A stretch of DNA of 64,000 nt from an uncultured Gammaproteobacteria bacterium (GTDB lineage Bacteria; Patescibacteriota; Microgenomatia; Levybacterales; UBA12049). A model generated the notes under the pieces. The model was not told the origin of the DNA and did no database searches. It saw nothing but the letters and a program-made list of their open reading frames with translations. This document shows, piece after piece, positions 31,309 to 62,885 of the stretch. The position numbers and the translations under genes are program-made. The stretch is from contig OZ246394.1 in the NCBI GenBank assembly GCA_965230895.1, positions 377,316 to 441,315 of the forward strand, read 5' to 3'. Position 1 is the first letter of the stretch. Every line of letters starts with the position of its first letter.

Positions 31309-31313
31309 AAACC

Positions 31314-31493
31314 TTATTTGTTGAACATGTAACGACTGATATGTCCTACCAACATAATAAGTAATAATGTATTTACAGCGACAAATCCAACCGCAATAAG
31401 TGGGTGCACTTTGTCAGCAAGCATAAGACCTGCGGCTGATGTAGCTGGTAATGTTGTTGCTGCTCCTACTAATCCTTTTCCATATTCGTTCAT
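31314..31493 (-). CDS. 59-aa mini-protein consisting of a short N-tail plus a complete LPXTG-like sorting signal (MNEYGKGLVGAATTLPATSAAG-TM-ISRYMFNK); not in the ORF track (<60 aa)
   Basis: Translated by hand from the minus strand; paralog of the 61-aa ORF at 42746-42931 with invariant YGKG, LPATSAAG and ISRY; sits between GT2 and sortase. Confidence 0.5.
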   Translation of the reverse strand: MNEYGKGLVGAATTLPATSAAGLMLADKVHPLIAVGFVAVNTLLLIMLVGHISRYMFNK

Positions 31494-31534
31494 AATCTAA
31501 TCACCTCCTTCTTGACTCGCCCTAAGGGCGGGTA

Positions 31535-32833: not shown

Positions 32834-32912
32834 GTACTATGGGGCTAAATTTTGGGTATAAAAAAAGCACGGGTATTTCTATACTCGTGCTACTTAAAAC
32901 GACTAATAAGCC

Positions 32913-42035: not shown

Positions 42036-42141
42036 ATATATTTATTAACAATTAAATGTTAAATTTATAAGACTCATAGTAACATATATAGAACCTTATG
42101 TCAATATATTAAATAACTTATAGTTATATATTGACTTGAAC

Positions 42142-42732
42142 TTATTTTTCGTTAGAAAGTTCTATCTTTACTAATGCAGCTTTTACAATATATTGCTTGT
42201 TCGAGAACGTTTCATCTGATGTAACAAGAGTCAAAATAGGTGTTTTTGTTGGTGCAAAAACATTTGTATCTGTTGTTTTTGCCAATCTTGAAGAAGTTAC
42301 TTTATATGTTGCTTTTTGACCGTTACCATAGACTACAATTTCAGTATTATTATTAAGTTGTTGGATTCGAGTAAATCCATCAAGTCTATCGTTTGCAAAA
42401 AGTCCAACGTTTCCTTCTTTATCATTGACCAAGCTTGTGCCTTCAGCAAAGTTGGCAACATGTGGAAGAAGCTCCCAAGTACCATCTCTTAATGGTACTG
42501 AAAATACTGGAAGGTCAATTTCTACAGAAGAGATAACGATTCGTTCAGGAGTGAAAGCTGATAATGTCTTAACAGGAGTAACTGTTGGTGTCTTTGATGC
42601 AAATGGCGTTGCTGTCAATTCTTGAGAATTAGCTACAGTAGATGACACACCAGTACCAAGCGCACCAAGTTGCGCGATACTAGCAAAAGCCGCCAAAACA
42701 AAAATAGTTGTATAAACACTTACTTTCTTCAT
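42142..42732 (-). CDS. Sortase-fold paralog with all three catalytic residues substituted (degenerate / pseudo-sortase)
   Basis: Aligns along its length with the sortase at 30688-31308, but GLFGHAQ→GLFANDR (His→Asn), TLITCDG→TLVTSDE (Cys→Ser), VRAEL→VKAAL (Arg→Lys). Confidence 0.7.
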   Translation of the reverse strand: MKKVSVYTTIFVLAAFASIAQLGALGTGVSSTVANSQELTATPFASKTPTVTPVKTLSAFTPERIVISSVEIDLPVFSVPLRDGTWELLPHVANFAEGTSLVNDKEGNVGLFANDRLDGFTRIQQLNNNTEIVVYGNGQKATYKVTSSRLAKTTDTNVFAPTKTPILTLVTSDETFSNKQYIVKAALVKIELSNEK

Positions 42733-42745
42733 ATCGTTAATTGAC

Positions 42746-42931
42746 TTATTTAGCTCTATTAACTAAATATCGACTGATTTGACCTGCTAAGATAACAAGC
42801 CATACGACATTAAGTACTATAAAACCTGCAAGTACAATCGGATTACTTAAGTCAGCAAAGAATGCTCCTGCTGCTGAAGTAGCCGGTAATACCGCTGCGC
42901 CTAATACTTGTCCTTTTCCGTAATCTGTCAT
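42746..42931 (-). CDS. 61-aa mini-protein, paralog of 31314-31493 (MTDYGKGQVLGAAVLPATSAAG-TM-ISRYLVNRAK)
   Basis: Same architecture and invariant LPATSAAG; same position between GT2 and sortase homolog. Confidence 0.5.
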   Translation of the reverse strand: MTDYGKGQVLGAAVLPATSAAGAFFADLSNPIVLAGFIVLNVVWLVILAGQISRYLVNRAK

Positions 42932-42946
42932 AGCTTTCTCCTTTCG

Positions 42947-44209
42947 TTAGTTTTTTGTACCCCACTTTGTTGAGAATCCTGCCTTATTGAAGGCTGCGAG
43001 TCCCCAGTTATATGGAGCATTGAATAATGATATTCTTGTTGCAATTGGCTTAAAGACTTTGTTGTATACGATAAATAAGTATGATCCGAGCAAGATAAGA
43101 CTTAACAAGTTACTGTAAATAAGTTCTGGAAGAACGGTTAACTTCATTAACCAATCTCTCTTATCACTATCTTCATATAAAGATAATGAAACGACATTAA
43201 AGATGAATGCTACAAGGAAGTTGAATAATGAAAGAGCGAATAATATAAGTACTGTTTCTGGATTACTTGTTTCAGTTCGTACAAAAAAGAATGACAACAC
43301 AATCAATCCAAAAAGACTGATGAACAACATATGTCCGATAAGATCTTGGTAAATAACATCAAATTTCTTCCAGAATTCACCCAACACATGGAGTCCACCA
43401 CTTACCCATCGAACACGCTGTTTCCAGAGTGCTTCGATTGATTCAGGAACTGTTGTCCATGCAATTGCTTTTTGAGCAATCTTTACATTCCAACCTTCAC
43501 TCTTCAATCGTGCTGTAATATCATAGTCTTCAATCAAGTGGCCTTTTGTAAAACCATTAATTTCTTTAACTGCTGCTGTTCGAAAAGCTGTTAACATGCC
43601 ATGCATTACAAGTGGTCCTTTTAAGAAACCATTGTCAGCAATCTTTGTGATATTAAAGTTATGGTATTCAAGTGCTTGCAATCGAGTTAAGAAGTTTTTG
43701 TTCTTATTAATAACTCGTACTTCAGAACAGACGGCACCGACTGTATCGTCAGAATACAATGTCGCAACCATTTGTGGAACTGTGTTCTTAGTAATGATCA
43801 CATCATCATCGAAAGTGAAGATAACATCTGGAACATGCTTGAGACTCAAGACATATTCAATACCATGATTTAAGGCCGCTGCTTTTAACTCATTTTTAGG
43901 AGTTCGCAAATAAGCCATATTATTGTGTTCGTTTGCAAGAGCTTTGATTTTGTTAAGTGTCTTAAGATTTTTTTCAGTTTCTGGAGTACAATCATCAATG
44001 ACAACAAGAATTGCTTCAGGATGCCAATCAAGAATAGACTTAATTAGGTTATAGGTCATATCAGTTGGAGTATGAGTTGGTACCAGAATTGCAGGAAGTT
44101 TACTCTGAATAAGCTTCTCACTCATCAAGATTATTTCCTTTTTAGGAGCGAAAAAGTTCACGGATTCTTCCGCGATTCGTTTGAATGTATTTGTATTTTT
44201 TCTCTTCAT
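42947..44209 (-). CDS. Processive family-2 glycosyltransferase, paralog of 31535-32833
   Basis: …AILVVIDDCTPE…, …FTFDDDVI…, QxxRW …WKQRVRWVSGGL…; C-terminal TM helices. Confidence 0.8.
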   Translation of the reverse strand: MKRKNTNTFKRIAEESVNFFAPKKEIILMSEKLIQSKLPAILVPTHTPTDMTYNLIKSILDWHPEAILVVIDDCTPETEKNLKTLNKIKALANEHNNMAYLRTPKNELKAAALNHGIEYVLSLKHVPDVIFTFDDDVIITKNTVPQMVATLYSDDTVGAVCSEVRVINKNKNFLTRLQALEYHNFNITKIADNGFLKGPLVMHGMLTAFRTAAVKEINGFTKGHLIEDYDITARLKSEGWNVKIAQKAIAWTTVPESIEALWKQRVRWVSGGLHVLGEFWKKFDVIYQDLIGHMLFISLFGLIVLSFFFVRTETSNPETVLILFALSLFNFLVAFIFNVVSLSLYEDSDKRDWLMKLTVLPELIYSNLLSLILLGSYLFIVYNKVFKPIATRISLFNAPYNWGLAAFNKAGFSTKWGTKN

Positions 44210-48368: not shown

Positions 48369-49718
48369 ATGGTTGAAAGAAGAGAGCGCAGAAGAGCGCC
48401 TGAAGTGAAAGAGAAGCCGTCACGGCATGTGCCGCAAGTTGCTATCATTGATTTTGATAGAACATTGGGTGATGTTGACGCGAGTATGAAGCGTTTTTAC
48501 AACGCTGCTGAATTTGTTGGAGTAAATGCCGCTCACGTCAAAAGTGCTCAAACAAAAACTGAAGCAGATGGTGGCACATTTGAACCGCTTAGTTTTGTGA
48601 AAGACCAACTCGATGAAGAAGGATACGCTGCATTTAAAAATCATTTTATCACTGCAGACGGCCCTTCAATCATGTATCCAGAATCACAACCCTTCCTCGA
48701 CATGCTTACTGAAAAAAATATGCCTTTCGTTGTACGGACATGGGGAGTTAGTGCCGAGTGGCAACATTTAAAGATCGCTGCTGCTGGATATACAGGTGCA
48801 TACGAAGTAATGGATAAAAAAGATAAGGGAGCAGAAATCGAATCATGGAGACAAGAAACCGCTGATGGCAATTCCATTATTGTTGTCCCAGACCATCCAA
48901 GTAGTCCCGAATTAATCACTGCAGATAGTGCTGTACTTATTGATGATAAAGCGTCTTCATTCAAATCTTTGAACAGAAAAGATACCGGTTTTTGGATCGT
49001 TCCAAAAGATGGCGAACTTCTCAAAAGCCAACAAGGCGATGTCCCAGCAAACGTTCAAAAAACTTCGTTGGATGAATTGACCGTTGTTGAAGGACACATT
49101 GTCAAAAAAGCATTACCAAATGAAGGTGAAGTATTTAATGCGCAAGAAATGAAAGATGGTCTTCCAGAAGGAATCTTTTTCTCAACAGAATTGACTGAAA
49201 AACACATTGAGCAACTTGTAGCTTTCTCTACAGACACAGAAGATGTAGGCGTACAAAATAACACTTCAGACAAAAAACGCTTTAAAGATCGTGAAGCAGT
49301 AAATAAATGGATTGAAAAAGGAAGATCTGTTGTTGTGTTAACAGATGATGAAGGCGACTTGCTTGGTATTAGTTGGTTGGGTGCAGAAGACATTAATCTT
49401 GATAATCGTGAGCTTTTGCCATCATTTGACCCTGCTGAAGCAGCTCGATATGGTGTGACATTTGCTATCCGAACATATGAAAAGGCACGAGGAAAAGGAT
49501 TGTCACGTAAATTAGCACAACAAGCTGAAAGACAATTTGAAACAACAGCTGAATATCAAAAGCTAGTCAAAGAAGGAAAGCAATTCCCATGGTTAGAGGT
49601 TTCAGCAGATAATATCCCTGCGGTGAAATCATACTCAAAGAATGGTTATGTTCAAATAACTGCACGCAACGAAGAAGGCAAGATCCTGATGGTTCAAAAA
49701 GAAGAGCCACAGAAATAA
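48369..49718 (+). CDS. Two-domain protein: N-terminal HAD-like domain (paralog of the next gene) + C-terminal GNAT-like acetyltransferase fold
   Basis: …VAIIDFDRTLGD… (DxDxT); N-terminal 230 aa align with 49763-50443 (…DGGTFEP…, …VLIDDKASSFKSL…); C-terminal …RGKGLSRKLAQQAE… GNAT-like. Confidence 0.5.
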   Translation: MVERRERRRAPEVKEKPSRHVPQVAIIDFDRTLGDVDASMKRFYNAAEFVGVNAAHVKSAQTKTEADGGTFEPLSFVKDQLDEEGYAAFKNHFITADGPSIMYPESQPFLDMLTEKNMPFVVRTWGVSAEWQHLKIAAAGYTGAYEVMDKKDKGAEIESWRQETADGNSIIVVPDHPSSPELITADSAVLIDDKASSFKSLNRKDTGFWIVPKDGELLKSQQGDVPANVQKTSLDELTVVEGHIVKKALPNEGEVFNAQEMKDGLPEGIFFSTELTEKHIEQLVAFSTDTEDVGVQNNTSDKKRFKDREAVNKWIEKGRSVVVLTDDEGDLLGISWLGAEDINLDNRELLPSFDPAEAARYGVTFAIRTYEKARGKGLSRKLAQQAERQFETTAEYQKLVKEGKQFPWLEVSADNIPAVKSYSKNGYVQITARNEEGKILMVQKEEPQK

Positions 49719-49762: not shown

Positions 49763-50443
49763 ATGACAAACAAACACATCCCTCAGGCTGTAGTTATTGA
49801 TTTCGATAGAACATTGAGTGATGTCCAAAAATCAGTTGAACATCTTTATGCTGTGACAAAAGAATTTGGAATTGATGCTGAAAAAATAGAATCCGCTCGA
49901 AGAGCACTCGAAGATGATGGCGGAACATTTGAGCCAATCACGTATCTTCAAAGCGTTCTAACAAAAGATCAAATGAAAGAGTTTTACGCCAAGTTTTTGG
50001 CAACAAGAATGGACTCATTTTTTGATGACGCACACCCTTTTCTTTCGTTATTAGAAGCAAACAACATCCCTTATTATGTCCTTACATATGGAGTCAGCTC
50101 CATATGGCAGGAATTAAAAGTCAAAGGAAGTGGATATGATGGGCCCATGAAAATTATGGACCACAGTGATAAAGGTGCAGAAATAGCGAAATGGAGAAAT
50201 TCTGAAAAGAAATATGCGCTTCCGCTATTTCAAAATATTCAGTGGACTGCAGATACCATTTGTCTGATTGATGACAAAGCATCAGCATTTAAAAGTTTAC
50301 CTGAAGATTGCACCGGATATCTTATCCAACGAAGCAAAACCCAACTCCCAAGCCAACAAGGAAAAGTAGGAAATCACATCCAAACCATCAAATCGCTAAG
50401 TGAGTTAACAATTCAAAATAAAATCCTCACGTTAAAAAGATAA
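49763..50443 (+). CDS. HAD-like domain protein, tandem paralog of the N-terminal half of 48369-49718
   Basis: …AVVIDFDRTLSD…, …DDGGTFEP…, …ICLIDDKASAFKSL…. Confidence 0.5.
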   Translation: MTNKHIPQAVVIDFDRTLSDVQKSVEHLYAVTKEFGIDAEKIESARRALEDDGGTFEPITYLQSVLTKDQMKEFYAKFLATRMDSFFDDAHPFLSLLEANNIPYYVLTYGVSSIWQELKVKGSGYDGPMKIMDHSDKGAEIAKWRNSEKKYALPLFQNIQWTADTICLIDDKASAFKSLPEDCTGYLIQRSKTQLPSQQGKVGNHIQTIKSLSELTIQNKILTLKR

Positions 50444-50614: not shown

Positions 50615-53254
50615 TTACTTTTTCGTCTGTAAGTTTTTAGATGTCCAGAGGTTTGGTAAATCGTTATTGTAGAGTGCAGTTCCGAACCAAGCCCAATTCT
50701 GTGTATAATAATTCTTAGAATCTTCCCAATAACTTCCATCCTTATCTTCGTACAACTTGTTCAATACTTGCTTGTCATATACTTCTTTTGCAGCAGCTTT
50801 ATCAGTAACAACAAAGTTTGCCAAATTTGACGCATATGCACTTGCTGATTCATAGTCTTCCCATGGTTTTCCATCATGTGTATACGCTACACTGATTCGT
50901 TGATTGTTTTTCCATTCCTTGCGGATGAAATCATTCTTTGAGAGATATGCCTGCGCACGAGGTTCTTTGAACCATTGATAATCAAGAGCAATTCTCCAAG
51001 GAGTTCTAAATGCATCAAAGCCATATTCTGTTGAGTCCAAACCTTTTTCTGGAGATTTAATAATTCTTCCATTCGCATCAACTGCACACCAATTTGGAGC
51101 GAGCCCTGCAGATGATTCTTTATCCAGATCGCTATCAGTACATGCATTCAGCACTTCATACGATGTGTCTACGAGATCCATCCAATCATGTTTTGTATCA
51201 ATTTCTGCAAAGATTCGGTAACTACTTGGTGCAAGATATGATGGATTGATGATCGCTGCATTCTTTGCCTTAGCCCAGTTACCTGCGACGAGATATGGCT
51301 TACCTCTGACAACTTTCACTTCGTTGTCCCAAATTGCTTGCATAATCGTTCGACCATCGATAATATAGCCGGGATTGTTCCATCGCTTTCCAGCAAAAGC
51401 GAGTGCCAGAGCGATATCTTCATCTGCATCAGTTGCTGAACTTCGGTCAACCACACCCATGGTTCCATCGGCTTTCTTTCCCCACTTCCATGCAATAAGA
51501 TTGTTCTCTTGTTGCATGTTACGTTTGGTGAATCCCCATGCTTTATCAAAGGTTTGCTTATCGTTCATCCAGACTGCTCGAAGCATTGTGTATGATTGCG
51601 CTTCGGATGTTGTTAAGTTATTCGCTGGATCAACAGCATTTCCATCTTTCTTGATAAATGTACTTTTATATGTTTCCCATGTCGAGACAAGAATTCTTCG
51701 AGAGTTCTTTACAGCCCAGATCTGAACATACCAACCATCTCCTGCGAAACTCGTAATCGGATTGGACTGAGCCAAAGCACTTCCGGTCATTGGGATTTCA
51801 CCTGTACCCAAGTCACCACCGATAAGCGGTGTAAACAAGACATAATCAATATTATTGTAGTCATTCTTCAAAATCTTTTCTTTAATGTCTTTATCACCAT
51901 CAACTTTCCAATAATATTCTGCATTTGCGAAATTGTTGTTATTTCGATAGTTCAAATCGAGGTATGCATAATTATCAATTGCATAAAAAGCATTTGGATT
52001 TTGTCGACTCAAGATCCAATTGACCGCTTCGATCTGCGCATTTGTTTCATTTGAGGTATAGATATTAAATTTCCCTGAGCGGACATTGTTTGAATAATTG
52101 AAGACTAAGACACCCATATAAATGATAAATGCCATAATTGGGAAAATTGCATAAATCTGTAATGGCCAGAACCTCATCCGGGCAAAGAAGTGATAGATTC
52201 TATAAAGAACGTATGACGTGGTGAGTGCTACTAACGGAACCAAGGGAATGATATAGAATTCAAGCACCAATCCTCCACGAAGTAAGAAAGCCCAGTAAGA
52301 AACAGCAAGTCCAGCAATAATTCGTGCCGCAACACTTCGAATAGCCAAGAGGAGCGTGATAAGAGTACTGATTGCCCCAACAATCATGAATGATGGATCA
52401 TCATTTTTCCAGTTCCCTGTCATCTCCCAGAAACTCGAATCAGGATTAAGAATACTGACATTTCCCCGTCCCCCTTGGAATTGCAATGTTCCCAAAAGAC
52501 TTACGTGCTCATGTTGGCCACCCAGAAGCGTTCCTGCCGGAAAGAATTCACCTTTAAACATACTGAAGATGAAATAAAGCGAGATAACGACACCTGCGAC
52601 AGCAATCCATTTGATTGTACCGAATATTCTATTTATTTTATGCAATTGTGAATAAACCAGTGCGGCCATGAACGGCAGGAAGAAAATCGCACTTTCTTTA
52701 CTAAGGACAGAAATACCAAATGTCACCGCACTGGCGATAATCCAGCGAAGTCGTTGCTTACTAAAGAGTACAAAAGCAACTGACAAGAGCAGCCAAAATA
52801 CCATGATATTGTCCAGAAGTACACGTCGCTGGAAATAAATTGCCAAAGGTGAAAGTGAAAACATCAGCACAGCAAACGAACCAACCATCTTAGAATTTGT
52901 GATCTTCTTTCCTATGAAATACAGCAGCAATGCTGATCCAATGTGTAGCAAGAGCATGAGTACGCGGCCTGAGTTAATGGCAAACCCAAAAGTAAATAAG
53001 CCACCTGTAAGCTTTATCCATAGTGCAATAAGCATCCAGCCAACTGGAGCATGATCGTACCAATAGGTATACGGAGCTAATTTGCCATCATTGATGATCG
53101 CCCAGGCTTGTGCCATATATGTTCCCTCATCAGATTCATAATATGGATAACCAAGCATGTTATAACCATGAGCAATTGCCGCAATCGCCAGCAAACCAAA
53201 TACAAGAACGTATTCCATCTTATTACTGTTAAAAAATTCTTTAATCTTTTTCAT
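50615..53254 (-). CDS. GT-C-fold membrane glycosyltransferase (PMT/ArnT-like, polyprenyl-phosphate-sugar dependent) fused to a C-terminal GH8 (BcsZ-like endoglucanase) domain
   Basis: N-terminal ~12 TM with …YYESDEGTY… first-loop acidic motif; C-terminal GH8 signature …SSATDADEDIALALAFAGKRW…. Confidence 0.8.
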   Translation of the reverse strand: MKKIKEFFNSNKMEYVLVFGLLAIAAIAHGYNMLGYPYYESDEGTYMAQAWAIINDGKLAPYTYWYDHAPVGWMLIALWIKLTGGLFTFGFAINSGRVLMLLLHIGSALLLYFIGKKITNSKMVGSFAVLMFSLSPLAIYFQRRVLLDNIMVFWLLLSVAFVLFSKQRLRWIIASAVTFGISVLSKESAIFFLPFMAALVYSQLHKINRIFGTIKWIAVAGVVISLYFIFSMFKGEFFPAGTLLGGQHEHVSLLGTLQFQGGRGNVSILNPDSSFWEMTGNWKNDDPSFMIVGAISTLITLLLAIRSVAARIIAGLAVSYWAFLLRGGLVLEFYIIPLVPLVALTTSYVLYRIYHFFARMRFWPLQIYAIFPIMAFIIYMGVLVFNYSNNVRSGKFNIYTSNETNAQIEAVNWILSRQNPNAFYAIDNYAYLDLNYRNNNNFANAEYYWKVDGDKDIKEKILKNDYNNIDYVLFTPLIGGDLGTGEIPMTGSALAQSNPITSFAGDGWYVQIWAVKNSRRILVSTWETYKSTFIKKDGNAVDPANNLTTSEAQSYTMLRAVWMNDKQTFDKAWGFTKRNMQQENNLIAWKWGKKADGTMGVVDRSSATDADEDIALALAFAGKRWNNPGYIIDGRTIMQAIWDNEVKVVRGKPYLVAGNWAKAKNAAIINPSYLAPSSYRIFAEIDTKHDWMDLVDTSYEVLNACTDSDLDKESSAGLAPNWCAVDANGRIIKSPEKGLDSTEYGFDAFRTPWRIALDYQWFKEPRAQAYLSKNDFIRKEWKNNQRISVAYTHDGKPWEDYESASAYASNLANFVVTDKAAAKEVYDKQVLNKLYEDKDGSYWEDSKNYYTQNWAWFGTALYNNDLPNLWTSKNLQTKK

Positions 53255-53258
53255 ATTT

Positions 53259-55484
53259 TTATCTGTTCACCGTGAAATATCTTGCATTCACCTTTGCTGG
53301 TGAAGGCATCGGTTTTTCTGGTCGGTGCGCATTCAAATGCAATGTTTTTTCCCAACTGTCTTGACCCACAGCCAATCGATAAATCGCACGCATCGCGCTA
53401 AAGCCCAAAATAATCTGGAACGGATAGAATACATAGAGAACTTTTAAAGGAATCCAAAATGGATATTTCAGGTTATAACCCTTTGTAAATTCAAATAATC
53501 CGATATTGTATGCAACCAATTGCAGAATCAACAGAAGCAATGGCACAATCGTAATCATGGCAAAAAGTACTGGAAGATCCAGAACAAATGCCATAAATAT
53601 TGATACAGGCAACATCATGAAGAAGAATGCCTGCAACTGTGGAACGAGCAAAATATATGCAGCCAGGAATCGCTGTGATGCCTTTGGAAGATCAAGCCAT
53701 TCACCTTTCATAAAGATTTGGATAAACCCTTGATTCCATCGAGTTCGTTGCTTAATGAAACTTTCAAGACTATGTGGAGTTTCTTCCTGAGTGGTATGTC
53801 GTTCATCATACACAACACCAATTCTTGCTCCACGAATACTCATACGGATACCAATATCTGCATCTTCTGTAAGACAATTTTCATCCCATCCACCAATCTT
53901 ATTAAGCAGATTTCTCTTAAAGAAAACTGTATTTCCACCCAATGGGATAATTCCTTGTTTTGCGAAATAATGCAACGATGACTTAAACCAGAAGAAGTAT
54001 TCCAACACATTAAGCGCTGAGAACCATTTTGATCGGAAGTTCATCAATTGGACTCCTGACTGTAATACATCAAATCCTCGCAACACCATCTCTGTATTAA
54101 CCAGATTATAAATTCCTCGACTTGGTTGGTCTTCTGCGTCAAAGACTGTGACAATATCTTTTGTTGCATGTCTCAAACCGATATTCAAACTGTGTGGCTT
54201 GTTGATTGGCATATCACTAAAGATAAGTAATTTAACATTTGGTTTATTTAAACGGGCAATTGTTTGCTCTGCTTTTGCACGAGTCCTGTGATCATCAGAT
54301 CGAACAATAACGAGTAATTCTTTCAAATGCTCAGGATAATCAATCGCTGCAATTGCACGAATAGTATCACCAATAACACGCTCTTCATGTCGGACAGGAA
54401 GAAGCGCTGTGAAAGAATATTTGGGCTTAAGGTATTTCTCTGGCGGCTTTTCTTTTTGGATTCTATCGACATCTTCCCAACCATAAATCATGAGGTAAAG
54501 ACTAAAAATACTTTGCCAAATCATCAGGACAGACAGCGTGACAATCGCCATTGAAACCATAGTCTGTGTACTAATCATTCCTGCATCACGTGCTCCGAAT
54601 AATACAAGTGCGGCTAAATTCCCGAATGCAAATGCGGTAATTGCGATAAATCCAGCCACGAGAATCATACCGACATGCGCCAAAAACGGAAAACGAATAA
54701 GGAAAGAATTCGTCACAAATTCGATAATATCTTGTTTTCTGAGCTTAGAATTCCCGAAAACCCTATCGGTAAATTGTATAGGAACTTCCTTGATGCGCGC
54801 ATTACTTTTAATGGCTTTATGGAGCAAATCAATCTGGAATGCATAGCCTTTCGACATGAGCTTGTTAAGATTGATCCTCTTAAGAAGTGAGGTACGAATT
54901 GCTCTATAACCACTTGTACAATCTTTTACCTTGCCTAGGCCTGCTACATGACGCGCAAAGATGTTTCCCCATTGGCTATTAAGCTTACGAAGTAACGGCC
55001 AATTACCCGGGATTGAGCCTCCATCAACATACCGTGAACCTATGACGAAGTCACTTCCCTTTTGTATCTCATAAACAAAGAATGAAATCATGGCTGGATC
55101 ATGAGACAGATCAGCATCCATCTCGAACACTATGTCTGCATGAAGGTAGCGCATAGCATACCTAAAACCTCGTATATAAGCATTCCCGAGGCCTTGCTTT
55201 CTTCCTCTGAGTAGATAAATATTTGTATACTTTCTAGCCAGCTTTGTTACTATATTTGCTGTACCATCAGGTGACCCATCATCTACGACAAGGATTGAAA
55301 GTTTGGCATTGTGGAGATATCTGATTTGAGCTTGGATTTCGGTGATAAGCTGTTCAATATTATCCTTTTCGTTATATGTAGGTACGACAATAACCACGTG
55401 ATCTTTCTGCAGATCCGGGTTAATTGGCTGGGTTCTATAAAACCGCTGATATAAATTAGACTGTTTATTCCGTGCTCGAATCAT
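53259..55484 (-). CDS. Dual-GT2 fusion: N-terminal DPM1/ArnC-like polyprenyl-phosphate glycosyltransferase + TM segment + processive QxxRW GT2 synthase
   Basis: …VVIVVPTYNEKDNI…VVDDGSPDGT…EMDADLSHDP…; second domain …LLPVRHEE…VFDAEDQP…QRTRWNQGF…; TM blocks between and after. Confidence 0.8.
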   Translation of the reverse strand: MIRARNKQSNLYQRFYRTQPINPDLQKDHVVIVVPTYNEKDNIEQLITEIQAQIRYLHNAKLSILVVDDGSPDGTANIVTKLARKYTNIYLLRGRKQGLGNAYIRGFRYAMRYLHADIVFEMDADLSHDPAMISFFVYEIQKGSDFVIGSRYVDGGSIPGNWPLLRKLNSQWGNIFARHVAGLGKVKDCTSGYRAIRTSLLKRINLNKLMSKGYAFQIDLLHKAIKSNARIKEVPIQFTDRVFGNSKLRKQDIIEFVTNSFLIRFPFLAHVGMILVAGFIAITAFAFGNLAALVLFGARDAGMISTQTMVSMAIVTLSVLMIWQSIFSLYLMIYGWEDVDRIQKEKPPEKYLKPKYSFTALLPVRHEERVIGDTIRAIAAIDYPEHLKELLVIVRSDDHRTRAKAEQTIARLNKPNVKLLIFSDMPINKPHSLNIGLRHATKDIVTVFDAEDQPSRGIYNLVNTEMVLRGFDVLQSGVQLMNFRSKWFSALNVLEYFFWFKSSLHYFAKQGIIPLGGNTVFFKRNLLNKIGGWDENCLTEDADIGIRMSIRGARIGVVYDERHTTQEETPHSLESFIKQRTRWNQGFIQIFMKGEWLDLPKASQRFLAAYILLVPQLQAFFFMMLPVSIFMAFVLDLPVLFAMITIVPLLLLILQLVAYNIGLFEFTKGYNLKYPFWIPLKVLYVFYPFQIILGFSAMRAIYRLAVGQDSWEKTLHLNAHRPEKPMPSPAKVNARYFTVNR

Positions 55485-55797
55485 CGTACATTACGGGCAG
55501 TAAGTATGGGGCAGAATTGATGAGCTTAATTGTATAGTTTAATACTATAAGTCAACAAAGGTTGAGTATATTATAGATGTACGCATATGTCAAGCTAAGC
55601 TATCCTCAATGACAATCACTCTCTGTGAGAAAATGTAATTTATCTAATTGACACTCAAACGAATAATTGATATACATGAAGTCTGCCACGGTAATAAAAA
55701 CAACGCAAAAGGATTTACTGCCCCTTTTTACTATAAGTTTTAAAATAGGTTAAATCTACAGTACTATTTACTTTAGCTATATCTACTAAGTAGGTAC

Positions 55798-55878: not shown

Positions 55879-58800
55879 ATGCAAACGAATCAACAACTTA
55901 TAAGTGTCGTAGTACCAGTTTATAATGAAATTGGTATCATTATGCAATTCAATGAGCAATTGCTTTTGACGCTTAACAACTCCAATCAGCCTTACGAAGT
56001 TATCTACGTTGATGACAATTCTACAGATGGAACATTTGAATGGCTCCAAAGTATCGCAAACGATACTATTAAAGTAATCCGAAAAATAGGCACAAAAGGA
56101 AAAGCGTATTCTCTTATGCAAGGGTTTGAAGTTGCTCAAGGAGAAATTCTTGCAATGATTGATGGAGACTTGCAATACCCTCCAGCAAAGATTCCTGAGA
56201 TGACTCAAGCGTTACAAAATGCTGACATTGTAGTAGCAAATAGAAAAGACTATAAGGACTCAAAAATGAGAAAACTTTTAAGCCGAGGTTTTAGAAATGT
56301 TTTTGGAAAAATGCTCTTTGGTCTAAACACGGATATCCAATCAGGTCTTAAAGTCTTTAAAAAAGAAGTCTATGAGACAGTGAAGTTCCAACCAGTATCA
56401 CCTTGGACATTTGACTTAGAATTTCTGCATCGAGCAAAGCAAGCTGGTTATACATTAAAAAATACAGAGATTGTATTTGCGCCGCGACGAAATGGCCAAT
56501 CAAAGATGAATGTGGTCAAGCAGTCATATGAAATTGGAGCAAATGCGTTGAATATCAAAATGAAGCCAGTCACATACTTCCCAGTCGAACCGGAAAAAGG
56601 GACAATGCGTGGTGCTGGAGTGAAAGCAAAGAATAAAAAGTATGTGACACACACAACCCTTCCGTCTGCGCTTTCAGCGATTGAAACATTTACGTTCCCA
56701 CAAAAGGTATTCTTTATCGGAACGCCAATTCTTTTACTCTTAGCGTATATCTTAATTCCTTTACAAGCAGCGCGTGTAACTGTTGGTGTATTGAGTATTC
56801 TCTACTTCATTGATGCGATCTTCAATATCTATGTCGTTGGAAAAAGTTTGAGCAAGAAAAACGAAATTGATGTTTCAGAAGCAGAACTTGCAGAAATCAA
56901 TGAATCTGAATTACCAGTCTATACAATTCTTTGTCCTTTATATAGAGAAGCACACGTTGTACCACAGTTTTTGGAAGGTATTTCAAAGATTGATTGGCCA
57001 AAAGAAAAGCTTGATGTGATGTTTCTTCTTGAAGAAGACGATACAGAAACGATTGCGGAATTCGAAAAGATGAATTTACCATTCTATGCTCGAACTGTTA
57101 TCGTCCCTGATTCACAACCAAAGACAAAACCAAAAGCATGTAACTATGGTCTTTCATATGCAAAGGGTGAATACTTGGTTATTTTCGATGCGGAAGATGT
57201 ACCAGATCCATTACAGTTGAAGGTTGCATACCTTGGGTTTAAGAAAGCACCAAGCAATGTAAAATGTTTGCAAGCTAAGTTGAGTTATTACAACTCACGA
57301 TACAACTTGCTTACTCGATTCTTTACAGCTGAATATGCATTGTGGTTCGATGTTACATTGCCTGGTTTGCAATCTCTTAATTCTGCACTTCCACTCGGAG
57401 GTACAAGTAACCATTTCTTGACTGAAAACTTGCGAGAGCTTCAAGGTTGGGATCCATTTAACGTTACTGAAGATGCTGACTTGGGTGTCCGACTTTTTCA
57501 ACGAGGGTATCGTACAGCTATCATTAACAGTACAACATATGAAGAAGCTACGAGTGTCCGAAAAGTATGGTTGAAGCAACGATCACGATGGATCAAAGGA
57601 TATATGCAAACATACTTGGTTCACATGCGAAACCTTCCAGGATTCGTTAAGCAAGTAGGTTTGTGGCACAACTTCATCTTCCAACTTACAGTTGGTGGAA
57701 AGATCTTGTTCGTCCTTTTGAATCCGTTCATGTGGGTTATCACTGCACTTTATTTCTTAGCTAACCCTGTCTTTGGCCCAATCATGGAAGCGATCTATCG
57801 CCCACCTGTTTCATATATCGCGGTATTCTCATGGATCTTTGGTAACTTCATGTTCTTATATTGTTACATGATCGCGGTTGGTAAACGAAAAGACTGGGAT
57901 CTTGCAAAATATGTCCTTTTGATTCCTTTGTACTGGGTCATGATGAGTACAGCTGCCATGATCGCGCTTTACCAATTGATCTTAAAACCCCACTATTGGG
58001 AAAAGACGTTGCATGGATTCCATCTTGGTCGAAAAGATAGTAAAGCAACTGAATCAGCACCGATGCAGGCGCCAAGACCAGCAATTCAGCCAGCATATGT
58101 ACCGGTTGCTGAACCTACAGTAAAGCCTAGTGCGAAATCTGCGGCATCTTTCACAATGCCAAATATTTCATTACCAAGTATTACTTTGCCTAAATTTACA
58201 GGTTTCTATGCGAAATTCTTGCAAGTATTACCTATCCTCGTTCTCTTGAACCTTGATTTAGCTTTGGCTCATGCATTCTTGTCACCAGAAGAAGCACAAA
58301 CATATCTCGTGCTTTCACTTATTGGTAAAGCAGCTTTTGTCATAAGTCAATTCGGTTCAACATTCATTGCAGGAGTTCTTTCTCGAGGTAAATCTGCGAC
58401 AAACCATTTCTTTAATTTGATCTTCTTTACCTTCCTCTTTAACTGGATTGGTTATGTTGTCTTTGGACTTGAAGGCCAATACTTCATCCCGGCAATGTTT
58501 GGTAATAGCCTTGATGGAATCATTGCTTACATGCCATTCTATATGTTTGCATTGCTTTGTTTCGCAGTTGCAAACCGATTCAGTGCCTTCCATGCACAGA
58601 AAAAGAACTATGCTTTCATAGGTATTTCACTCGCAACAATCTTGGCATTCGTTCCATTCATCTTAGTAAACAATGAAACAATCTCTGATTACGTCCGAAC
58701 ATTTGCTTATCTTGGATCAATCAATTTGTTCTTCGTAGTTATCATGCATTTGAGTAATCCATACGTTCGAGTTATGGAAAACAACCTTGCAAGTTTCATC

Positions 58801-60015
58801 GCAGTCTTCGATAAATCAAAAACAAAAAAAGTCTGGAAAGACAATGGTATGAAGATCCTTATCTTCAATTGGAGAGATACAAAACATATTTATGCTGGCG
58901 GTGCTGAAGTATATATCAATGAACTTGCAAAACGATGGGTAAAAAACGGTAATAAAGTAACACTTTTTAGTGGAAATGATAATAGAAATCTTTTCTACGA
59001 GAACGTCAACGGTATTGAAGTCTACCGACGTGGTGGAACATACACAGTATATTTCTTTGCGGTAATGTATTACCTTCTTAAGTTCCGAGGTAAGTACGAC
59101 GTTATCATTGATTGCGAAAATGGTATTCCATTCTTTATGCCTCTCTTTGCAAAAGAACAGGTTATCTTGCTTGTCCATCACGTTCATCAAGAAATCTTCC
59201 GAAAGTTTCTTAAGTTCCCGATGAGTACTGTTGCAGAATTCCTTGAAGGCAAAGTAATGCCGTTTATTTATCAAAATAAAAACGTTGTTACAGTATCTGC
59301 ATCTTCACAAAGTGAAATCTTTAATCTTGGATTTACAAATTCAGGGAACATCGCAATTATTCCAAATGGTGTTGATGAAACACTCTATGTTGATTATCCA
59401 AAAACAGATCATCCTTCATATATTTATCTTGGCCGATTGAAGGAATATAAAAATATTGATGTAGCCATCAAAGCTTTTGCGAAAGTTTTGAAAATACATA
59501 AGAATGCGACATTATCAATTGTTGGAACTGGAGAAAGTTACTATGAATTGCGAGGATTAGTTGAGAGACTTGGTGTTTCAAATGCAGTTACATTCCATGG
59601 TCGTGTATCAGAGAAAGAAAAAGCACGACTCCTTTCCCAAAGCTGGGCAGCGATACAACCTTCACAAATGGAAGGTTGGGGTATCACAGTTATTGAAGCA
59701 AATGCTGCTGGGACACCAGTTATCGCATCTCGAGTAAATGGTTTGCAAGATTCAGTTATCGATAATCAAACAGGACTTCTCGTAGAAGCTGGTGACGTTG
59801 CATCATTTGCAATCGCGATGAGAAAGCTTGCTGATAATGACTTAGTTCGAGTATCACTTTCAAATGAAGCAAGAAAATGGGCTCAGAACTTCAATTGGGA
59901 TAAAAGTGCTGAAGATTTCTATACATTAATTGGTCGAAATTTTGCACAAGGAACTATCAGTCCAGCATATACAAATGTTGTATTGAATACTGCTGAGAAA
60001 GGATCTACAAACTAA
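55879..60015 (+). CDS. 1378-aa triple-glycosyltransferase fusion: DPM1-like GT2 + processive QxxRW GT2 + polytopic membrane region + C-terminal GT4 (group-1) glycosyltransferase
   Basis: …ISVVVPVYNE…VDDNSTDGT…IDGDLQYPP…; …LCPLYRE…IFDAEDVPDP…QRSRWIKGY…; ~10 TM helices; GT4 …KILIFNWRD…GGAEVY… and EX7E …EGWGITVIEANAAGTPVIA…. Confidence 0.85.
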   Translation: MQTNQQLISVVVPVYNEIGIIMQFNEQLLLTLNNSNQPYEVIYVDDNSTDGTFEWLQSIANDTIKVIRKIGTKGKAYSLMQGFEVAQGEILAMIDGDLQYPPAKIPEMTQALQNADIVVANRKDYKDSKMRKLLSRGFRNVFGKMLFGLNTDIQSGLKVFKKEVYETVKFQPVSPWTFDLEFLHRAKQAGYTLKNTEIVFAPRRNGQSKMNVVKQSYEIGANALNIKMKPVTYFPVEPEKGTMRGAGVKAKNKKYVTHTTLPSALSAIETFTFPQKVFFIGTPILLLLAYILIPLQAARVTVGVLSILYFIDAIFNIYVVGKSLSKKNEIDVSEAELAEINESELPVYTILCPLYREAHVVPQFLEGISKIDWPKEKLDVMFLLEEDDTETIAEFEKMNLPFYARTVIVPDSQPKTKPKACNYGLSYAKGEYLVIFDAEDVPDPLQLKVAYLGFKKAPSNVKCLQAKLSYYNSRYNLLTRFFTAEYALWFDVTLPGLQSLNSALPLGGTSNHFLTENLRELQGWDPFNVTEDADLGVRLFQRGYRTAIINSTTYEEATSVRKVWLKQRSRWIKGYMQTYLVHMRNLPGFVKQVGLWHNFIFQLTVGGKILFVLLNPFMWVITALYFLANPVFGPIMEAIYRPPVSYIAVFSWIFGNFMFLYCYMIAVGKRKDWDLAKYVLLIPLYWVMMSTAAMIALYQLILKPHYWEKTLHGFHLGRKDSKATESAPMQAPRPAIQPAYVPVAEPTVKPSAKSAASFTMPNISLPSITLPKFTGFYAKFLQVLPILVLLNLDLALAHAFLSPEEAQTYLVLSLIGKAAFVISQFGSTFIAGVLSRGKSATNHFFNLIFFTFLFNWIGYVVFGLEGQYFIPAMFGNSLDGIIAYMPFYMFALLCFAVANRFSAFHAQKKNYAFIGISLATILAFVPFILVNNETISDYVRTFAYLGSINLFFVVIMHLSNPYVRVMENNLASFIAVFDKSKTKKVWKDNGMKILIFNWRDTKHIYAGGAEVYINELAKRWVKNGNKVTLFSGNDNRNLFYENVNGIEVYRRGGTYTVYFFAVMYYLLKFRGKYDVIIDCENGIPFFMPLFAKEQVILLVHHVHQEIFRKFLKFPMSTVAEFLEGKVMPFIYQNKNVVTVSASSQSEIFNLGFTNSGNIAIIPNGVDETLYVDYPKTDHPSYIYLGRLKEYKNIDVAIKAFAKVLKIHKNATLSIVGTGESYYELRGLVERLGVSNAVTFHGRVSEKEKARLLSQSWAAIQPSQMEGWGITVIEANAAGTPVIASRVNGLQDSVIDNQTGLLVEAGDVASFAIAMRKLADNDLVRVSLSNEARKWAQNFNWDKSAEDFYTLIGRNFAQGTISPAYTNVVLNTAEKGSTN

Positions 60016-60914
60016 TGAAGCCAGTAACAGTATCAGTTGGAATTCCAGCATTTAATGAAGGCAAAAATATTCAACGCTTGCTTTTATCGGTTCTTGCACA
60101 AAAAGAAAATGGTATAGTTCTCAAAGAAGTATTCGTCATGTCAGACGGCAGTAGTGATGACACAGCAAAGAAAGTAAAAGCGCTGAAGGATAAACGAATC
60201 AAATTCTTTGACGATGGAAAGCGTTTGGGAAAATCCGCTCGGATGGATCAGCTCTTCCGAAAAGTTTCAGGCGATGTCCTCATGCTTATGGATGCAGATA
60301 TTGTGATTGATGATCGTTTACTATTTTCAAAAGTAGTTCGTCGAGGGAAGCTTGAGAAAGCAGGTATTGCTGGAGTAAATGTACAACCTTTGAAATCAGA
60401 AGTGTTCTTTGAAGAGATTATCAAAACTGGTGTACTCATCATGAAAGACATCGCAAAGAACTGGAATGCGGGAAGAAATTACTTATCATACAAAGGTGCA
60501 TTTTTAGCGCTTGATGGCAGTTTCGCACGATCAATTCATATCCCAGCAAGTATCGTAAACAATGACCCGTACCTTTATTTCGCAGCTGTTGAGAAAGGTT
60601 TTAAACCTTCATACATTACAAGTTGTGAAGTCTTTTATCGCTCCCCTATGACATTGCATGACCATATAAAACAATCTTCACGATTCCAAAGTTCACGTGA
60701 AGAGCTTTCAAAACATTTCAAGCTTGATTGGGACAAAGAATACACGATGCCAGTTGCAATCGTTATGAAAAGTATCTTAAAATCAATTGGTACCCGCCCT
60801 TTCCATTTTGCTCTTTATGGTGCCGTTAATGTCATTTCTAAGGTCAAAAGACAAACGAAACTTAAAAGTACGTGGAGCATTGCAAACTCTACAAAAGGGA
60901 AAATTAGTATATGA
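60015..60914 (+). CDS. Family-2 glycosyltransferase (start overlaps the upstream stop, TAATG)
   Basis: …VSVGIPAFNEGKNI…, …VMSDGSSDDT…, …MDADIV…. Confidence 0.7.
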   Translation: MKPVTVSVGIPAFNEGKNIQRLLLSVLAQKENGIVLKEVFVMSDGSSDDTAKKVKALKDKRIKFFDDGKRLGKSARMDQLFRKVSGDVLMLMDADIVIDDRLLFSKVVRRGKLEKAGIAGVNVQPLKSEVFFEEIIKTGVLIMKDIAKNWNAGRNYLSYKGAFLALDGSFARSIHIPASIVNNDPYLYFAAVEKGFKPSYITSCEVFYRSPMTLHDHIKQSSRFQSSREELSKHFKLDWDKEYTMPVAIVMKSILKSIGTRPFHFALYGAVNVISKVKRQTKLKSTWSIANSTKGKISI

Positions 60915-62002
60915 GCAGAGATAAATACGAAAGCCTTCCAATTCTCCACTTTGCAGAACAGATTAAAAAAAAGCATGTTAAAAAATCCCTCAAATGTATT
61001 ATTTTTGGTAACTTTGGTGCACTAAATTTAGGCGATGAAGCAATATTGGCAGGAGAAATCACGGAGTTACAAAAGATTCCTAATCTCAGTATTACTGTGA
61101 TTGGACGTTTCCCCAAAGAAGTTCATAAACTCCATAAGGTGCATGCTCTTTCAATGTACGATCTCTACAAAGTCCGTCGCGAAATTAGAAAGTCTGATTT
61201 CGTTATCGTCGGTGGAGGCGGATTAATCAATAAAGTTGAGCGTAGTATCAATGGCTTTCTTTTCCAACTCTATATGATTTTCACCTTTTTCTTTCTCCCA
61301 CGATTTTTCAAAAAGCGATTGTATGTGACTGGCATTGGAATCTACGATAATGCAAATCCTCTTATCGTGAATCTCGTGCTTCCATTCTTGAAAGGTGCAA
61401 CCCTTTTGACAGTTCGTGATGCTCATTCGCATGAATTCTTAAAACACAAAAATGTTCATGCAGGCTTGTACAAAGATAATAGTTTCCTCATGGAACAGTT
61501 AAACAAAGAAGATGTCCTCAAGCATGATCTTTTCAAAAAACATTATCGAAAAGATCGCATGAATATCGGAATCTCGCTTGTTAAACCTGATAGCAAAAAA
61601 GATGAAAAACGATTAATGGAAGAAGTGAAAAAGTTTATTGGCGAGTATCGAGAGAAAGCTGATTTTTGGCTTTATGCAACCGATGCCAACCCTTCATATG
61701 TAAATGATCTGATCATTGGCACAAATTTGATAAATGACGTCCAACGAGAATTTGGAAGTGGAGTTACGTTCCATACAGTCCCGACAAATCTCTCACCGAA
61801 AGTATATTTCTCGTCATTTAAGCTCATGAACTTTATGATCGCTATGCGATTTCATGCAGCTGTTTTTGCATACAGAAATAAAGTGGCTTTTGCAGGCATC
61901 CCATATGATAAGAAATGTACAAGCTTTATAACCTCAATTGGCAAGAAGCCAATCAACCTCAAAAGCCTCACTCATAGTGAGATTAGCAAAACCGTCTTAT
62001 AG
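60911..62002 (+). CDS. Polysaccharide pyruvyl transferase (CsaB/WcaK-like)
   Basis: …CIIFGNFGALNLGDEAILAGE… and …FVIVGGGGLIN… signatures of the PS_pyruv_trans family; 4-bp overlap with upstream gene. Confidence 0.7.
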   Translation: MSRDKYESLPILHFAEQIKKKHVKKSLKCIIFGNFGALNLGDEAILAGEITELQKIPNLSITVIGRFPKEVHKLHKVHALSMYDLYKVRREIRKSDFVIVGGGGLINKVERSINGFLFQLYMIFTFFFLPRFFKKRLYVTGIGIYDNANPLIVNLVLPFLKGATLLTVRDAHSHEFLKHKNVHAGLYKDNSFLMEQLNKEDVLKHDLFKKHYRKDRMNIGISLVKPDSKKDEKRLMEEVKKFIGEYREKADFWLYATDANPSYVNDLIIGTNLINDVQREFGSGVTFHTVPTNLSPKVYFSSFKLMNFMIAMRFHAAVFAYRNKVAFAGIPYDKKCTSFITSIGKKPINLKSLTHSEISKTVL

Positions 62003-62069
62003 TAGACTTTTGAGGCTAAATCCACTATAATGTCATCAATTCGTGTATTATTAATAAAGGAATATTTTT

Positions 62070-62885
62070 ATGAAGAAAACACTTTTTACAGCACTTACAA
62101 AAACCCGTCAAGCAGTTTATAAAACACTTGCCTCTTTTGATAAAAATGTTACCAAGCAAAGCAATCCAATCTTTGTCCTTTCCTACCACAGTATTGCAAA
62201 TGACAGTTGGCGCTTTAGTGTTTCAGAGAAAGCACTAAAAGAGCAAATCGAATATTTGCAAGAACATTTCACTATCGTCACACTCAAAGATTTACAAAAT
62301 CATATCTCTGGCAAAAAGATGATTACCAGACCATCAGTCGTTTTAACATTTGATGATGGATATAAAGATATTTTGCAATGGAAAGAGTATTTCGCAAAAC
62401 GAAATATCACTCCAGCATTGTTCATCCTTTCAAATACAAAAAATCCTAACTGGAAAGAGCTCGGAACAAAGAGAGAATTCCTTACTCCAAGTGATATAAA
62501 GTCACTTCTTAAATTAGACTGGGAAATTGGCAGTCACAGTGCTACACATGCTAACCTCGCAACACTAAACGATAAAGAATTACAAAAAGAAATTGTCGAT
62601 GCAAAAGCTGATTTAGAAAAATCCATTGGACAAAAGGTTAATTATTTTGCATATCCAAGAGGTAAATATGATGAAAATGTAGTACGCTATATAAAGGAAG
62701 CAAAGTACACGATGGCCCTAACCATGGACGATGGATTTATCCAGGAAGGCATGGACATGTTGAGAATACCAAGAGTTGGCATAGATAACACCCATACCTT
62801 TGAAGAATTTAAGGCAACGTTCTCGCCTTCAGTTGTACGCTTCCGAAAAATAATTAAAGAAAGTCCTGCCGGTAAATATCTATGA
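62070..62885 (+). CDS. Polysaccharide deacetylase (NodB-homology, CE4)
   Basis: …VVLTFDDGYKD…, …WEIGSHSATHANL…, …YFAYPRGKYD…. Confidence 0.8.
   Translation: MKKTLFTALTKTRQAVYKTLASFDKNVTKQSNPIFVLSYHSIANDSWRFSVSEKALKEQIEYLQEHFTIVTLKDLQNHISGKKMITRPSVVLTFDDGYKDILQWKEYFAKRNITPALFILSNTKNPNWKELGTKREFLTPSDIKSLLKLDWEIGSHSATHANLATLNDKELQKEIVDAKADLEKSIGQKVNYFAYPRGKYDENVVRYIKEAKYTMALTMDDGFIQEGMDMLRIPRVGIDNTHTFEEFKATFSPSVVRFRKIIKESPAGKYL

Follow-up and report, generated by a model that had tools for sequence, protein, structure and literature searches.

The stretch of DNA analysed here, hereafter the window, comprises 64,000 nucleotides (nt) of contig OZ246394.1 (assembly GCA_965230895.1) from an uncultured bacterium of the Patescibacteria type, and all positions given below refer to it. 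From an ATG start at 53254 down to 50615, its minus strand carries a single open reading frame (ORF) of 879 amino acids (aa), whose product combines a GT-C glycosyltransferase, an extracytoplasmic alpha/beta domain and a glycoside hydrolase of family 8 (GH8). A fusion of GT-C and GH8 in one gene had been proposed in an earlier sequence-only reading of this DNA, and it was borne out by the ORF, Pfam, AlphaFold (AF2) models, Foldseek and the homologues. In Pfam, Glyco_hydro_8 (PF01270) scored 166.1 bits at aa 519–842 (cut-off 24, E = 1.4e-48) and PMT scored 30.8 bits at aa 68–223 (cut-off 22.7), both exceeding their cut-offs, and NCBIfam returned BcsZ only, at a sub-cut-off score (138.2 versus 299 bits). 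The full-length AlphaFold model, built from 46 homologues (alignment A1), reached a predicted local distance difference test (pLDDT) of 91.6 and a predicted template modelling score (pTM) of 0.84. An artefact of gene calling, frameshift or assembly was ruled out by more than 100 independent full-length homologues (860–890 aa) with the identical architecture. We conclude that the 879-aa protein is a bifunctional, outward-facing envelope enzyme, in which a GT-C of 11 transmembrane (TM) helices is fused via a small extracytoplasmic domain to GH8.

The membrane domain (aa 1–390; 52085–53254, minus strand) has 11 TM helices and an N-terminus inside, as assessed from the helices of the AlphaFold model, hydropathy, a positive-inside count and Foldseek. 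The N-terminal part had been described as a polytopic domain of about 450 aa; it is polytopic, but its membrane part covers about 390 aa and is followed by an alpha/beta domain of about 125 aa (aa 391–515; 51710–52084, minus strand), recognised from the secondary structure of the model and carrying the invariant residues K450 and D454. GT-C-only homologues of ~500–530 aa also possess this domain, indicating that it belongs to the GT-C family. A separate AlphaFold model of aa 1–515 (pLDDT 91.2, pTM 0.91) was compared with the PDB using Foldseek, and all of the top 47 matches were GT-C enzymes, the best with E = 3.4e-9 and the query-normalised template modelling scores (TM-scores) not above 0.60. 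They include STT3, AglB, ArnT (5f15), Pmt4 (9i5k), ALG12/3/9, PglB and Pmt1/2, together with EmbA-C, AftA/B/D, DPY19 and PimE. The GT-C part gave no match in a PDB protein sequence search, and the GT-C family profile matched a single PDB sequence, yeast Pmt1, at E = 1.6. The GT-C assignment is thus one of Pfam and predicted fold, with weak sequence evidence; a failure of domain searches to support a GT-C fold, which would have spoken against the sequence-only reading, does not apply, as Pfam PMT and Foldseek both support it. The Foldseek E-values of STT3 and ArnT are about 30-fold apart and their query-normalised TM-scores (0.55–0.60) are alike, so the modelled fold does not discriminate single-sugar from en bloc transferases.

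The motif YYESDEGTY, pointed out earlier as the acidic first-loop motif of GT-C enzymes, is present at aa 38–46, as verified by translating the sub-range. Its D42-E43 pair (53126–53131, minus strand), located in the first extracytoplasmic loop, is a candidate catalytic pair like the DE motif of PMT. According to the homologue alignment, both residues are present in 45 of 45 sequences, the 46th having a gap at this place, and they are invariant in the GT-C-only alignment A2. D67-H68 (53051–53056, minus strand), inside the loop-1 block YTYWYDH, is invariant in 46 of 46 homologues and is kept in the stand-alone GT-C of Curtobacterium. Residues Y62-H68, R97, R143, D148, K186, E187, E236 and R263 are invariant or nearly so among the 46 homologues, and the DEGTY, YTYWYDH and LSKE blocks are retained in the Curtobacterium GT-C despite only 31% identity.

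To place the domains relative to the membrane, the 11 helices taken from the AlphaFold model and hydropathy were combined with charge averages over the 46 sequences. Lysine and arginine amounted to 12.3 per 45 residues in the inside loops versus 11.1 per 141 residues in the outside loops, and acidic residues were mostly found in outside-assigned loops. The predicted topology (N-terminus in, C-terminus out, loop 1 and its acidic motif outside) is consistent with the positive-inside rule and with the expectation for GT-C enzymes. Because no TM helix follows the alpha/beta domain in such an N-in, C-out protein, GH8 is predicted to be extracytoplasmic, and the possibility that it lies in a cytoplasmic loop does not apply: it comes after TM11 and the extracytoplasmic domain and faces outward. 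Two further hints of an outward GH8 come from the relatives: a LysM domain at the C-terminus of one homologue and, in Curtobacterium, a membrane anchor at the N-terminus of the stand-alone GH8.

The GH8 domain, an (alpha/alpha)6 glycoside hydrolase, occupies aa 516–879 (50618–51709, minus strand) according to Pfam PF01270, phmmer against the PDB and Foldseek; it had been put at about 400 aa, and the family stands while the length is about 365 aa. In the phmmer search, Clostridium thermocellum CelA (1cem) was matched at E = 4.5e-28 and the BcsZ chains at E of about 1e-21 to 1e-22; xylanases were far lower than CelA and BcsZ, and GH8 chitosanase was not among the PDB sequence matches of the domain. 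In Foldseek, BcsZ 3qxq gave a target-normalised TM-score of 0.85 and the BcsZ structures 0.84–0.85, and over BcsZ, the Pseudomonas and Vibrio endoglucanases, CelA and CMCax the range was 0.78–0.85. Residue equivalences were counted along the HMMER alignment to 1cem and 1kwf (the E95Q mutant). We take CelA E95 to be the acid and D278 the base. E551 (51602–51604, minus strand), the position of the general acid, is aligned to CelA E95, and D747 (51014–51016, minus strand), the position of the general base, to CelA D278 (chain index 246 of 1cem corresponds to residue 278). The GH8 signature noticed earlier, ATDADEDIALALAFAGKRW, was located at aa 607–625 (51380–51436, minus strand), again by translating the sub-range; within it, D609 is aligned to CelA D152, and D611 and D613 are invariant. 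By sequence, modelled fold and catalytic residues, the 879-aa protein classifies as a GH8 enzyme, and hydrolysis of a beta-1,4 glycan is predicted.

The catalytic positions vary among the 46 full-length homologues. Position 551 is Glu in 44 and Gln in two, and position 747 is Asp in 27, Asn in 18 and Ser in one; no column of the 46-homologue alignment covaries with the Asp/Asn split or compensates for it. The Asn747 forms may be slow, use another base or only bind glycan. An extension of the last option to the whole family would make GH8 mainly a non-hydrolytic binding or guiding domain that holds the nascent chain for the GT-C, like the carbohydrate-binding domains of Emb and AftD or the periplasmic BcsB. 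Besides the uncompensated replacements of base and acid, the pTM of 0.84 of the two-domain model, suggesting a fixed packing of GH8 against the GT-C, and the absence of a BcsB-like gene among the neighbours scanned are in its favour. However, the window protein has all the residues aligned to CelA E95, D152 and D278, the acid is retained in nearly all homologues, and the Actinomycetota cluster described below contains a stand-alone, membrane-anchored GH8 with catalytic motifs. We therefore give a mainly binding role little credence, and hydrolysis remains the predicted activity of the window protein.

Directly upstream, on the same strand and separated by 4 nt, lies a gene for a 741-aa protein (53259–55484, minus strand), in which Pfam, NCBIfam, PDB comparisons and synteny reveal a DPMS-like polyprenyl-phosphate-hexose synthase domain followed by a processive, BcsA-like glycosyltransferase of family 2 (GT2). 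The GT-C/GH8 gene is the second of this two-gene operon. The best match to a promoter in the region, TTGACA-17-TATACT (11 of 12 consensus positions; 55565–55593, minus strand), lies just upstream of the synthase gene; as the region has fewer such sites than shuffled sequence, the consensus scan makes this weak evidence. The first part of the protein (aa 1–300; 54585–55484, minus strand) is a GT2 of the DPMS/GtrB/ArnC type with two TM helices, as judged from PDB matches and TM segments (the latter at aa 267–332). Its aa 26–263 match the Pyrococcus Dol-P-Man synthase 5mlz at 127.8 bits (E = 3.8e-36), and the domain also matches ArnC (E ~6e-11), GtrB sll0501 (E ~1e-5) and, in NCBIfam, AglJ and PpgS.

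The second part (aa 320–741; 53262–54527, minus strand) was assigned by sequence motifs and a family profile to the processive GT2 synthases. It shows the features of processive membrane GT2 enzymes, namely the D, DxD, TED and QxxRW motifs and TM helices after the catalytic domain, and the DAED, LTED and QRTRW motifs are invariant in 20 synthase homologues. When the profile of these 20 members was compared with the PDB, BcsA (4hg6/4p00) was the best match at E = 2.4e-18 and HAS1 a weak one at E = 6e-5. For all 20 members, the NCBIfam product equivalogs remained far below their cut-offs (for the window synthase, PgaC/IcaA at 120 versus 422 bits and CelA, TIGR03030, at 63 versus 699), and the XrtP-associated glycosyltransferase was sub-cut-off as well. 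BcsB-like or other Bcs accessory subunits were not seen among the window ORFs scanned, nor was a BcsC-like partner among the neighbouring ORFs scanned.

A word-indexed homologue search returned 993 matches. Nearly all of the best 120, which were inspected, are 860–890 aa long and carry PMT or PMT_2 plus GH8, and the few named ones are labelled Woesebacteria, Pacebacteria or Patescibacteria. An exhaustive search of 50%-identity representatives gave 5111 matches at E ≤ 1e-3 and 804 at E ≤ 1e-30, with more than 100 full-length representatives. The architecture had been called unusual, a view that does not hold: homologous fusions were found in these numbers, mostly in Patescibacteria, and Actinomycetota encode the same parts in separate genes next to one another.

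A scan of species-representative genomes then yielded 80 loci from many Patescibacteria lineages, Chloroflexota and Actinomycetota (best match 49% identical), and all ORFs of the 80 loci were translated and searched with the four window domains. Among the 72 loci with enough upstream DNA, 64, spanning three phyla, had the synthase gene immediately before the GT-C gene in the same orientation; the eight exceptions were mostly ORF-boundary overlaps or tandem GT-C copies. GH8 was fused to the GT-C in 46 of the 80 loci, encoded by a separate downstream gene in 14 (nearly all Actinomycetota) and absent from the available flank in 20, the last group including Chloroflexota, Actinomycetota and Patescibacteria-labelled contigs. 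A DPMS-like GT2, fused to the synthase or encoded by a separate gene nearby, was recognised in about one third to one half of the loci. In Actinomycetota the order is synthase, GT-C, DUF4397, GH8, sortase and a small DPMS-like GT2, all as separate genes. Curtobacterium, for example, has a synthase of 683 aa, a GT-C of 661 aa with all motifs retained, a secreted DUF4397 protein and a membrane-anchored GH8 that is 35% identical to the window domain and retains the catalytic motifs. One protein, P0181 (1331 aa), unites synthase, GT-C and GH8 in one chain; it stems from a single cluster, where a gene-calling artefact is possible.

Several variations were seen among these loci. Some genomes have tandem GT-C or GT-C/GH8 genes after a single synthase gene (loci L016, L021, L076 and L019), and L019 has an additional GH8-containing gene downstream. 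Domain variants among P0234, P0236, P0241 and P0126 comprise a DUF4388 fused at the N-terminus of the GT-C, a Ser/Thr protein kinase combined with a closely related GH8, and a C-terminal LysM on the GT-C/GH8 fusion; these combinations hint at control by phosphorylation and at binding to a wall containing N-acetylglucosamine (GlcNAc). Many metagenome-assembled genomes carrying the gene (L003, L006, L007, L010, L011, L013 and others) are titled Gammaproteobacteria, Pseudomonadales or Bdellovibrionales, labels that are probably unreliable as a taxonomic distribution.

The reading that we favour, held with middling confidence, is that the synthase exports a beta-1,4 glycan, the GT-C modifies it outside the membrane using a polyprenyl-phosphate hexose, and GH8 trims or releases it. 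The processive synthase would polymerise a beta-linked glycan from a nucleotide sugar and thread the chain through the membrane. As the closest relatives of both the synthase and GH8 are cellulose enzymes, a beta-1,4 linkage and a cellulose-like polymer are probable. The DPMS-like domain would load a hexose (mannose or glucose) onto polyprenyl phosphate at the cytoplasmic face, and some flippase would carry the lipid-linked sugar to the outer face. There the GT-C, via its loop-1 D42-E43 site, would move the sugar onto the emerging polymer or its immediate acceptor, and the tethered GH8 would cut beta-1,4 bonds, thereby trimming, sizing or releasing the chain as BcsZ does on cellulose. In an organism without an outer membrane, the fusion of GH8 with the GT-C would hold both post-export activities at the exit of the synthase.

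Precedents exist for individual parts. A GT-A enzyme that makes a lipid-linked sugar and a GT-C that passes this sugar to an extracellular polymer form an established mechanism (PMC13390465), and GH8 enzymes are regular companions of cellulose synthesis operons (PMC5070118, PMC8892547, PMC11379886). The sequence-only reading had described the fusion itself as a build-and-trim architecture. The trimming half is supported, as GH8 faces outward and possesses the acid, the base and the D152 equivalent. The building half does not fit the GT-C: the polymer is most likely built by the upstream BcsA-like synthase, which accompanies the gene in the great majority of loci, and the likelier task of the GT-C is to attach a lipid-linked sugar on the outer side. 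That the GT-C donor is a polyprenyl-phosphate-linked sugar we infer solely from the adjacent DPMS-like GT2 domain.

Several points weigh against the favoured reading. Polymer, donor sugar and acceptor are putative, and the term cellulose-like rests on the nearest relatives, the synthase failing every curated NCBIfam cut-off. No GtrA-type flippase was found in the 64 kb by a hydropathy screen of ORFs of 80–260 aa with at least three hydrophobic segments; its two matches were both antisense ORFs within larger genes. The base position is Asn in more than a third of the homologues without compensation, and family-wide the conserved role may be something other than hydrolysis. A DPMS-like GT2 could be recognised nearby in only about one third to one half of the loci, and GH8 is missing from the available flank in a quarter of them, leaving synthase plus GT-C as the invariant core. 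With GH8 and the DPMS-like GT2 facultative, this pattern fits an obligatory partner of the synthase better than an optional decorator. Moreover, the fusion partner of the DPMS-like domain is the synthase, not the GT-C, an arrangement that fits lipid priming at least as well as decoration.

Lipid priming would mean that the synthase extends a polyprenyl-phosphate sugar supplied by the DPMS-like domain, that the GT-C transfers the chain en bloc to an acceptor (wall polymer, lipid or protein), and that GH8 sets its length. The direct fusion of the DPMS-like domain to the synthase, seen here and at several other loci, agrees with this, as does the match of that domain to AglJ, a starter of Dol-P-linked glycans. 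The oligosaccharyltransferases STT3 and AglB are the best structural matches of the GT-C, which is the obligatory neighbour of the synthase while GH8 and the DPMS-like gene are facultative, and the actinobacterial cluster also includes a sortase and a secreted DUF4397 protein. However, at least half of the loci have no DPMS-like gene nearby, and the fold scores of STT3 and ArnT are too alike to separate the kinds of transferase. To our knowledge, the solved BcsA-type synthases do not require a polyprenyl primer, which also speaks against it. We consider lipid priming unlikely, though worth weighing beside modification of an exported chain.

The PMT match raises another explanation, in which the GT-C is a protein O-glycosyltransferase that mannosylates secreted or surface proteins from polyprenyl-phosphate mannose, GH8 hydrolyses independently in the envelope and the association with the synthase is regulatory only. 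PMT is the only transferase family above its Pfam cut-off, Pmt1 is the sole match of the profile in the PDB, loop 1 contains a DE motif, the partner domain is closest to Dol-P-Man synthase, and NCBI labels some homologues 'glycosyltransferase family 39'. Yet the PMT match is weak and partial, the family profile reaches Pmt1 at E = 1.6 only, and PMT_4TMC and MIR were not reported by Pfam at E ≤ 0.01. Nor does this explanation account for a processive synthase being next door almost everywhere, for the attached glycan hydrolase or for the triple fusion, and we regard it as quite improbable. An assignment as a bona fide GT39 PMT was rejected for the partial match and the two unreported domains. 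Compared with PMT (GT39) and ArnT (GT83), the window protein shares the GT-C fold, 11 TM helices, an N-in, C-out orientation and the loop-1 DE motif, and PMT_2 is recorded for many homologues. It differs in its marginal sequence similarity, in the lack of MIR or PMT_4TMC, in its own C-terminal alpha/beta domain and in always adjoining a processive synthase.

A further reading is that the pair of BcsA-like synthase and GT-C defines a hitherto undescribed hybrid route of polysaccharide assembly, conserved in Patescibacteria, Chloroflexota and Actinomycetota. A synthase-dependent polymer would then obligatorily need a GT-C step on the outer side that uses a lipid-linked sugar, and GH8 and the DPMS-like GT2 would be accessories. 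We put this forward tentatively, as a serious but minority possibility. The GT-C might prime the polymer, ligate it en bloc to the envelope, graft a second chain or act as a guide in the manner of BcsB, and the Patescibacteria fusions would then be a compact form of the machine.

Compared with known systems, the protein would resemble in its action a BcsZ-type trimmer coupled to an outer-face transferase of the Gtr/ArnT/PMT type. The GH8 endo-beta-1,4-glucanases BcsZ, CMCax and CelA share with the window domain the fold, the aligned catalytic Glu and Asp together with D152, the extracytoplasmic site and the genetic coupling to a BcsA-like synthase. BcsZ-type enzymes are soluble periplasmic proteins, whereas this GH8 is covalently joined to a GT-C and its host is of the Patescibacteria type. 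A bona fide BcsZ (NCBIfam NF008305) was rejected because of the sub-cut-off score given above, a partner synthase that is not a BcsA equivalog and the lack of a BcsB-like ORF among the neighbours scanned.

The GtrA/GtrB/GtrC-type systems likewise couple a membrane GT2 resembling polyprenyl-phosphate-sugar synthases to a GT-C with an outward acidic loop (mechanism: PMC13390465). In contrast to them, the window has no GtrA flippase, its GT2 is fused to a processive synthase and its GT-C to a hydrolase. The presumed acceptor here is the synthase-dependent product, and not a teichoic acid, O-antigen or rhamnan. CsbB-YfhO and GacI-GacL are also multi-component extracytoplasmic glycosylation systems. 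The window thus encodes the GT2 polyprenyl-phosphate-sugar synthase of a Gtr-type system but not its GtrA-type flippase, and a complete Gtr system was rejected for lack of the latter in the hydropathy screen of the 64 kb.

The mycobacterial Emb and AftD proteins, both among the structural matches, also place an extracytoplasmic carbohydrate-recognising domain after a GT-C core in the same chain. Here, the appended domain is a complete glycoside hydrolase and not a carbohydrate-binding module, and the donor is probably a polyprenyl-phosphate hexose instead of decaprenyl-phosphate arabinose. The clostridial CcsA/CcsZ and the Listeria Pss/PssZ systems likewise combine a synthase-dependent exopolysaccharide with a dedicated extracellular glycanase and without an outer membrane (PMC7710045, PMC13492145). 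CcsZ, the cognate hydrolase, belongs to a family different from GH8 (PMC7710045). PssZ is classed in GH126 (PMC7479077), and an assignment of it to GH8 was rejected. Literature searches for a GT-C/GH8 fusion or for a module of GT-C plus synthase found no relevant paper, and databases list the family under generic names only. We know of no GT-C or lipid-linked sugar synthase in either the CcsA/CcsZ or the Pss/PssZ system. The sequence family itself is not new and its function is predicted; the point of interest could be that a GT-C is conserved as the partner of a synthase-dependent pathway across three phyla.

The surrounding 35 kb form a dense glycan region. An 878-aa protein (35387–38023, minus strand) consists of a processive GT2 (aa 88–378), several TM helices and a C-terminal GH26 domain of the mannanase family, and a stand-alone gene for a membrane-anchored GH26 adjoins it (38069–39151, minus strand). 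This GT2/GH26 fusion has more than 60 full-length homologues, labelled Woesebacteria, Blackburnbacteria, Microgenomates or Saccharimonadales, and these bacteria appear to have joined a polymer synthase to a matching hydrolase repeatedly. A 586-aa protein (28806–30566, minus strand) with a GH10 domain of the xylanase family at aa 261–580 adds to the unusually high density of glycan-active genes.

These GH10 and GH26 domains are also what could be cited for a scavenging role, in which GH8 would feed the cell by digesting cellulose or chitosan from the environment or a host, with the GT-C as a mere membrane anchor. Patescibacteria depend on external carbon sources, which would agree with such a role. 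However, about 20 invariant GT-C residues, including the loop-1 acidic motif, argue for catalysis and not anchoring, and the gene is strictly syntenic with a biosynthetic synthase. We judge scavenging very improbable indeed and keep to the export, modification and trimming of a glycan as the favoured role of the operon.

A three-gene module is present in two copies (30688–35243 and 39261–44209, both minus strand). In each copy, a very large N-anchored protein with a CE4 polysaccharide-deacetylase domain (776 aa in the first, 924 in the second) accompanies a chitin-synthase-like GT2 (432 or 420 aa) and a sortase (206 or 196 aa). They suggest deacetylated GlcNAc-type polymers and sortase-anchored partners. 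Divergent from the operon, at 55879–62885 (plus strand), a 1378-aa protein unites three domains (DPMS-like GT2, processive GT2 and GT4) and has some 10 TM segments; behind its gene come those for another GT2, for a polysaccharide pyruvyl transferase and for a CE4 deacetylase. The region probably represents a second, paralogous polysaccharide system, and locus L002 has a related large divergent gene. On the other side, two adjacent plus-strand genes (48369–49718 and 49763–50443) encode a common N-terminal domain with the motif IDFDRTLxDV ... DGGTFEP ... IDDKASxFKSL, for which Pfam gave no match; the first of them has a C-terminal GNAT acetyltransferase domain as well. No tRNA or Rfam feature was found in the 64-kb window.

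Patescibacteria have tiny genomes and are almost all uncultured, and their envelopes are little known. A conserved glycan machine of two genes and four activities is a concrete candidate for the maker of a major surface polymer of these bacteria. Synthase-dependent export and lipid-linked-sugar chemistry are normally treated as separate routes, and the pattern of fusions (DPMS-like domain with synthase, GT-C with GH8, and the triple fusion) ties a large uncharacterised GT-C family to a processive synthase. Because culturable Actinomycetota such as Curtobacterium, Plantibacter and Frigoribacterium encode the equivalent components one by one, the proposed mixed pathway is directly testable there.

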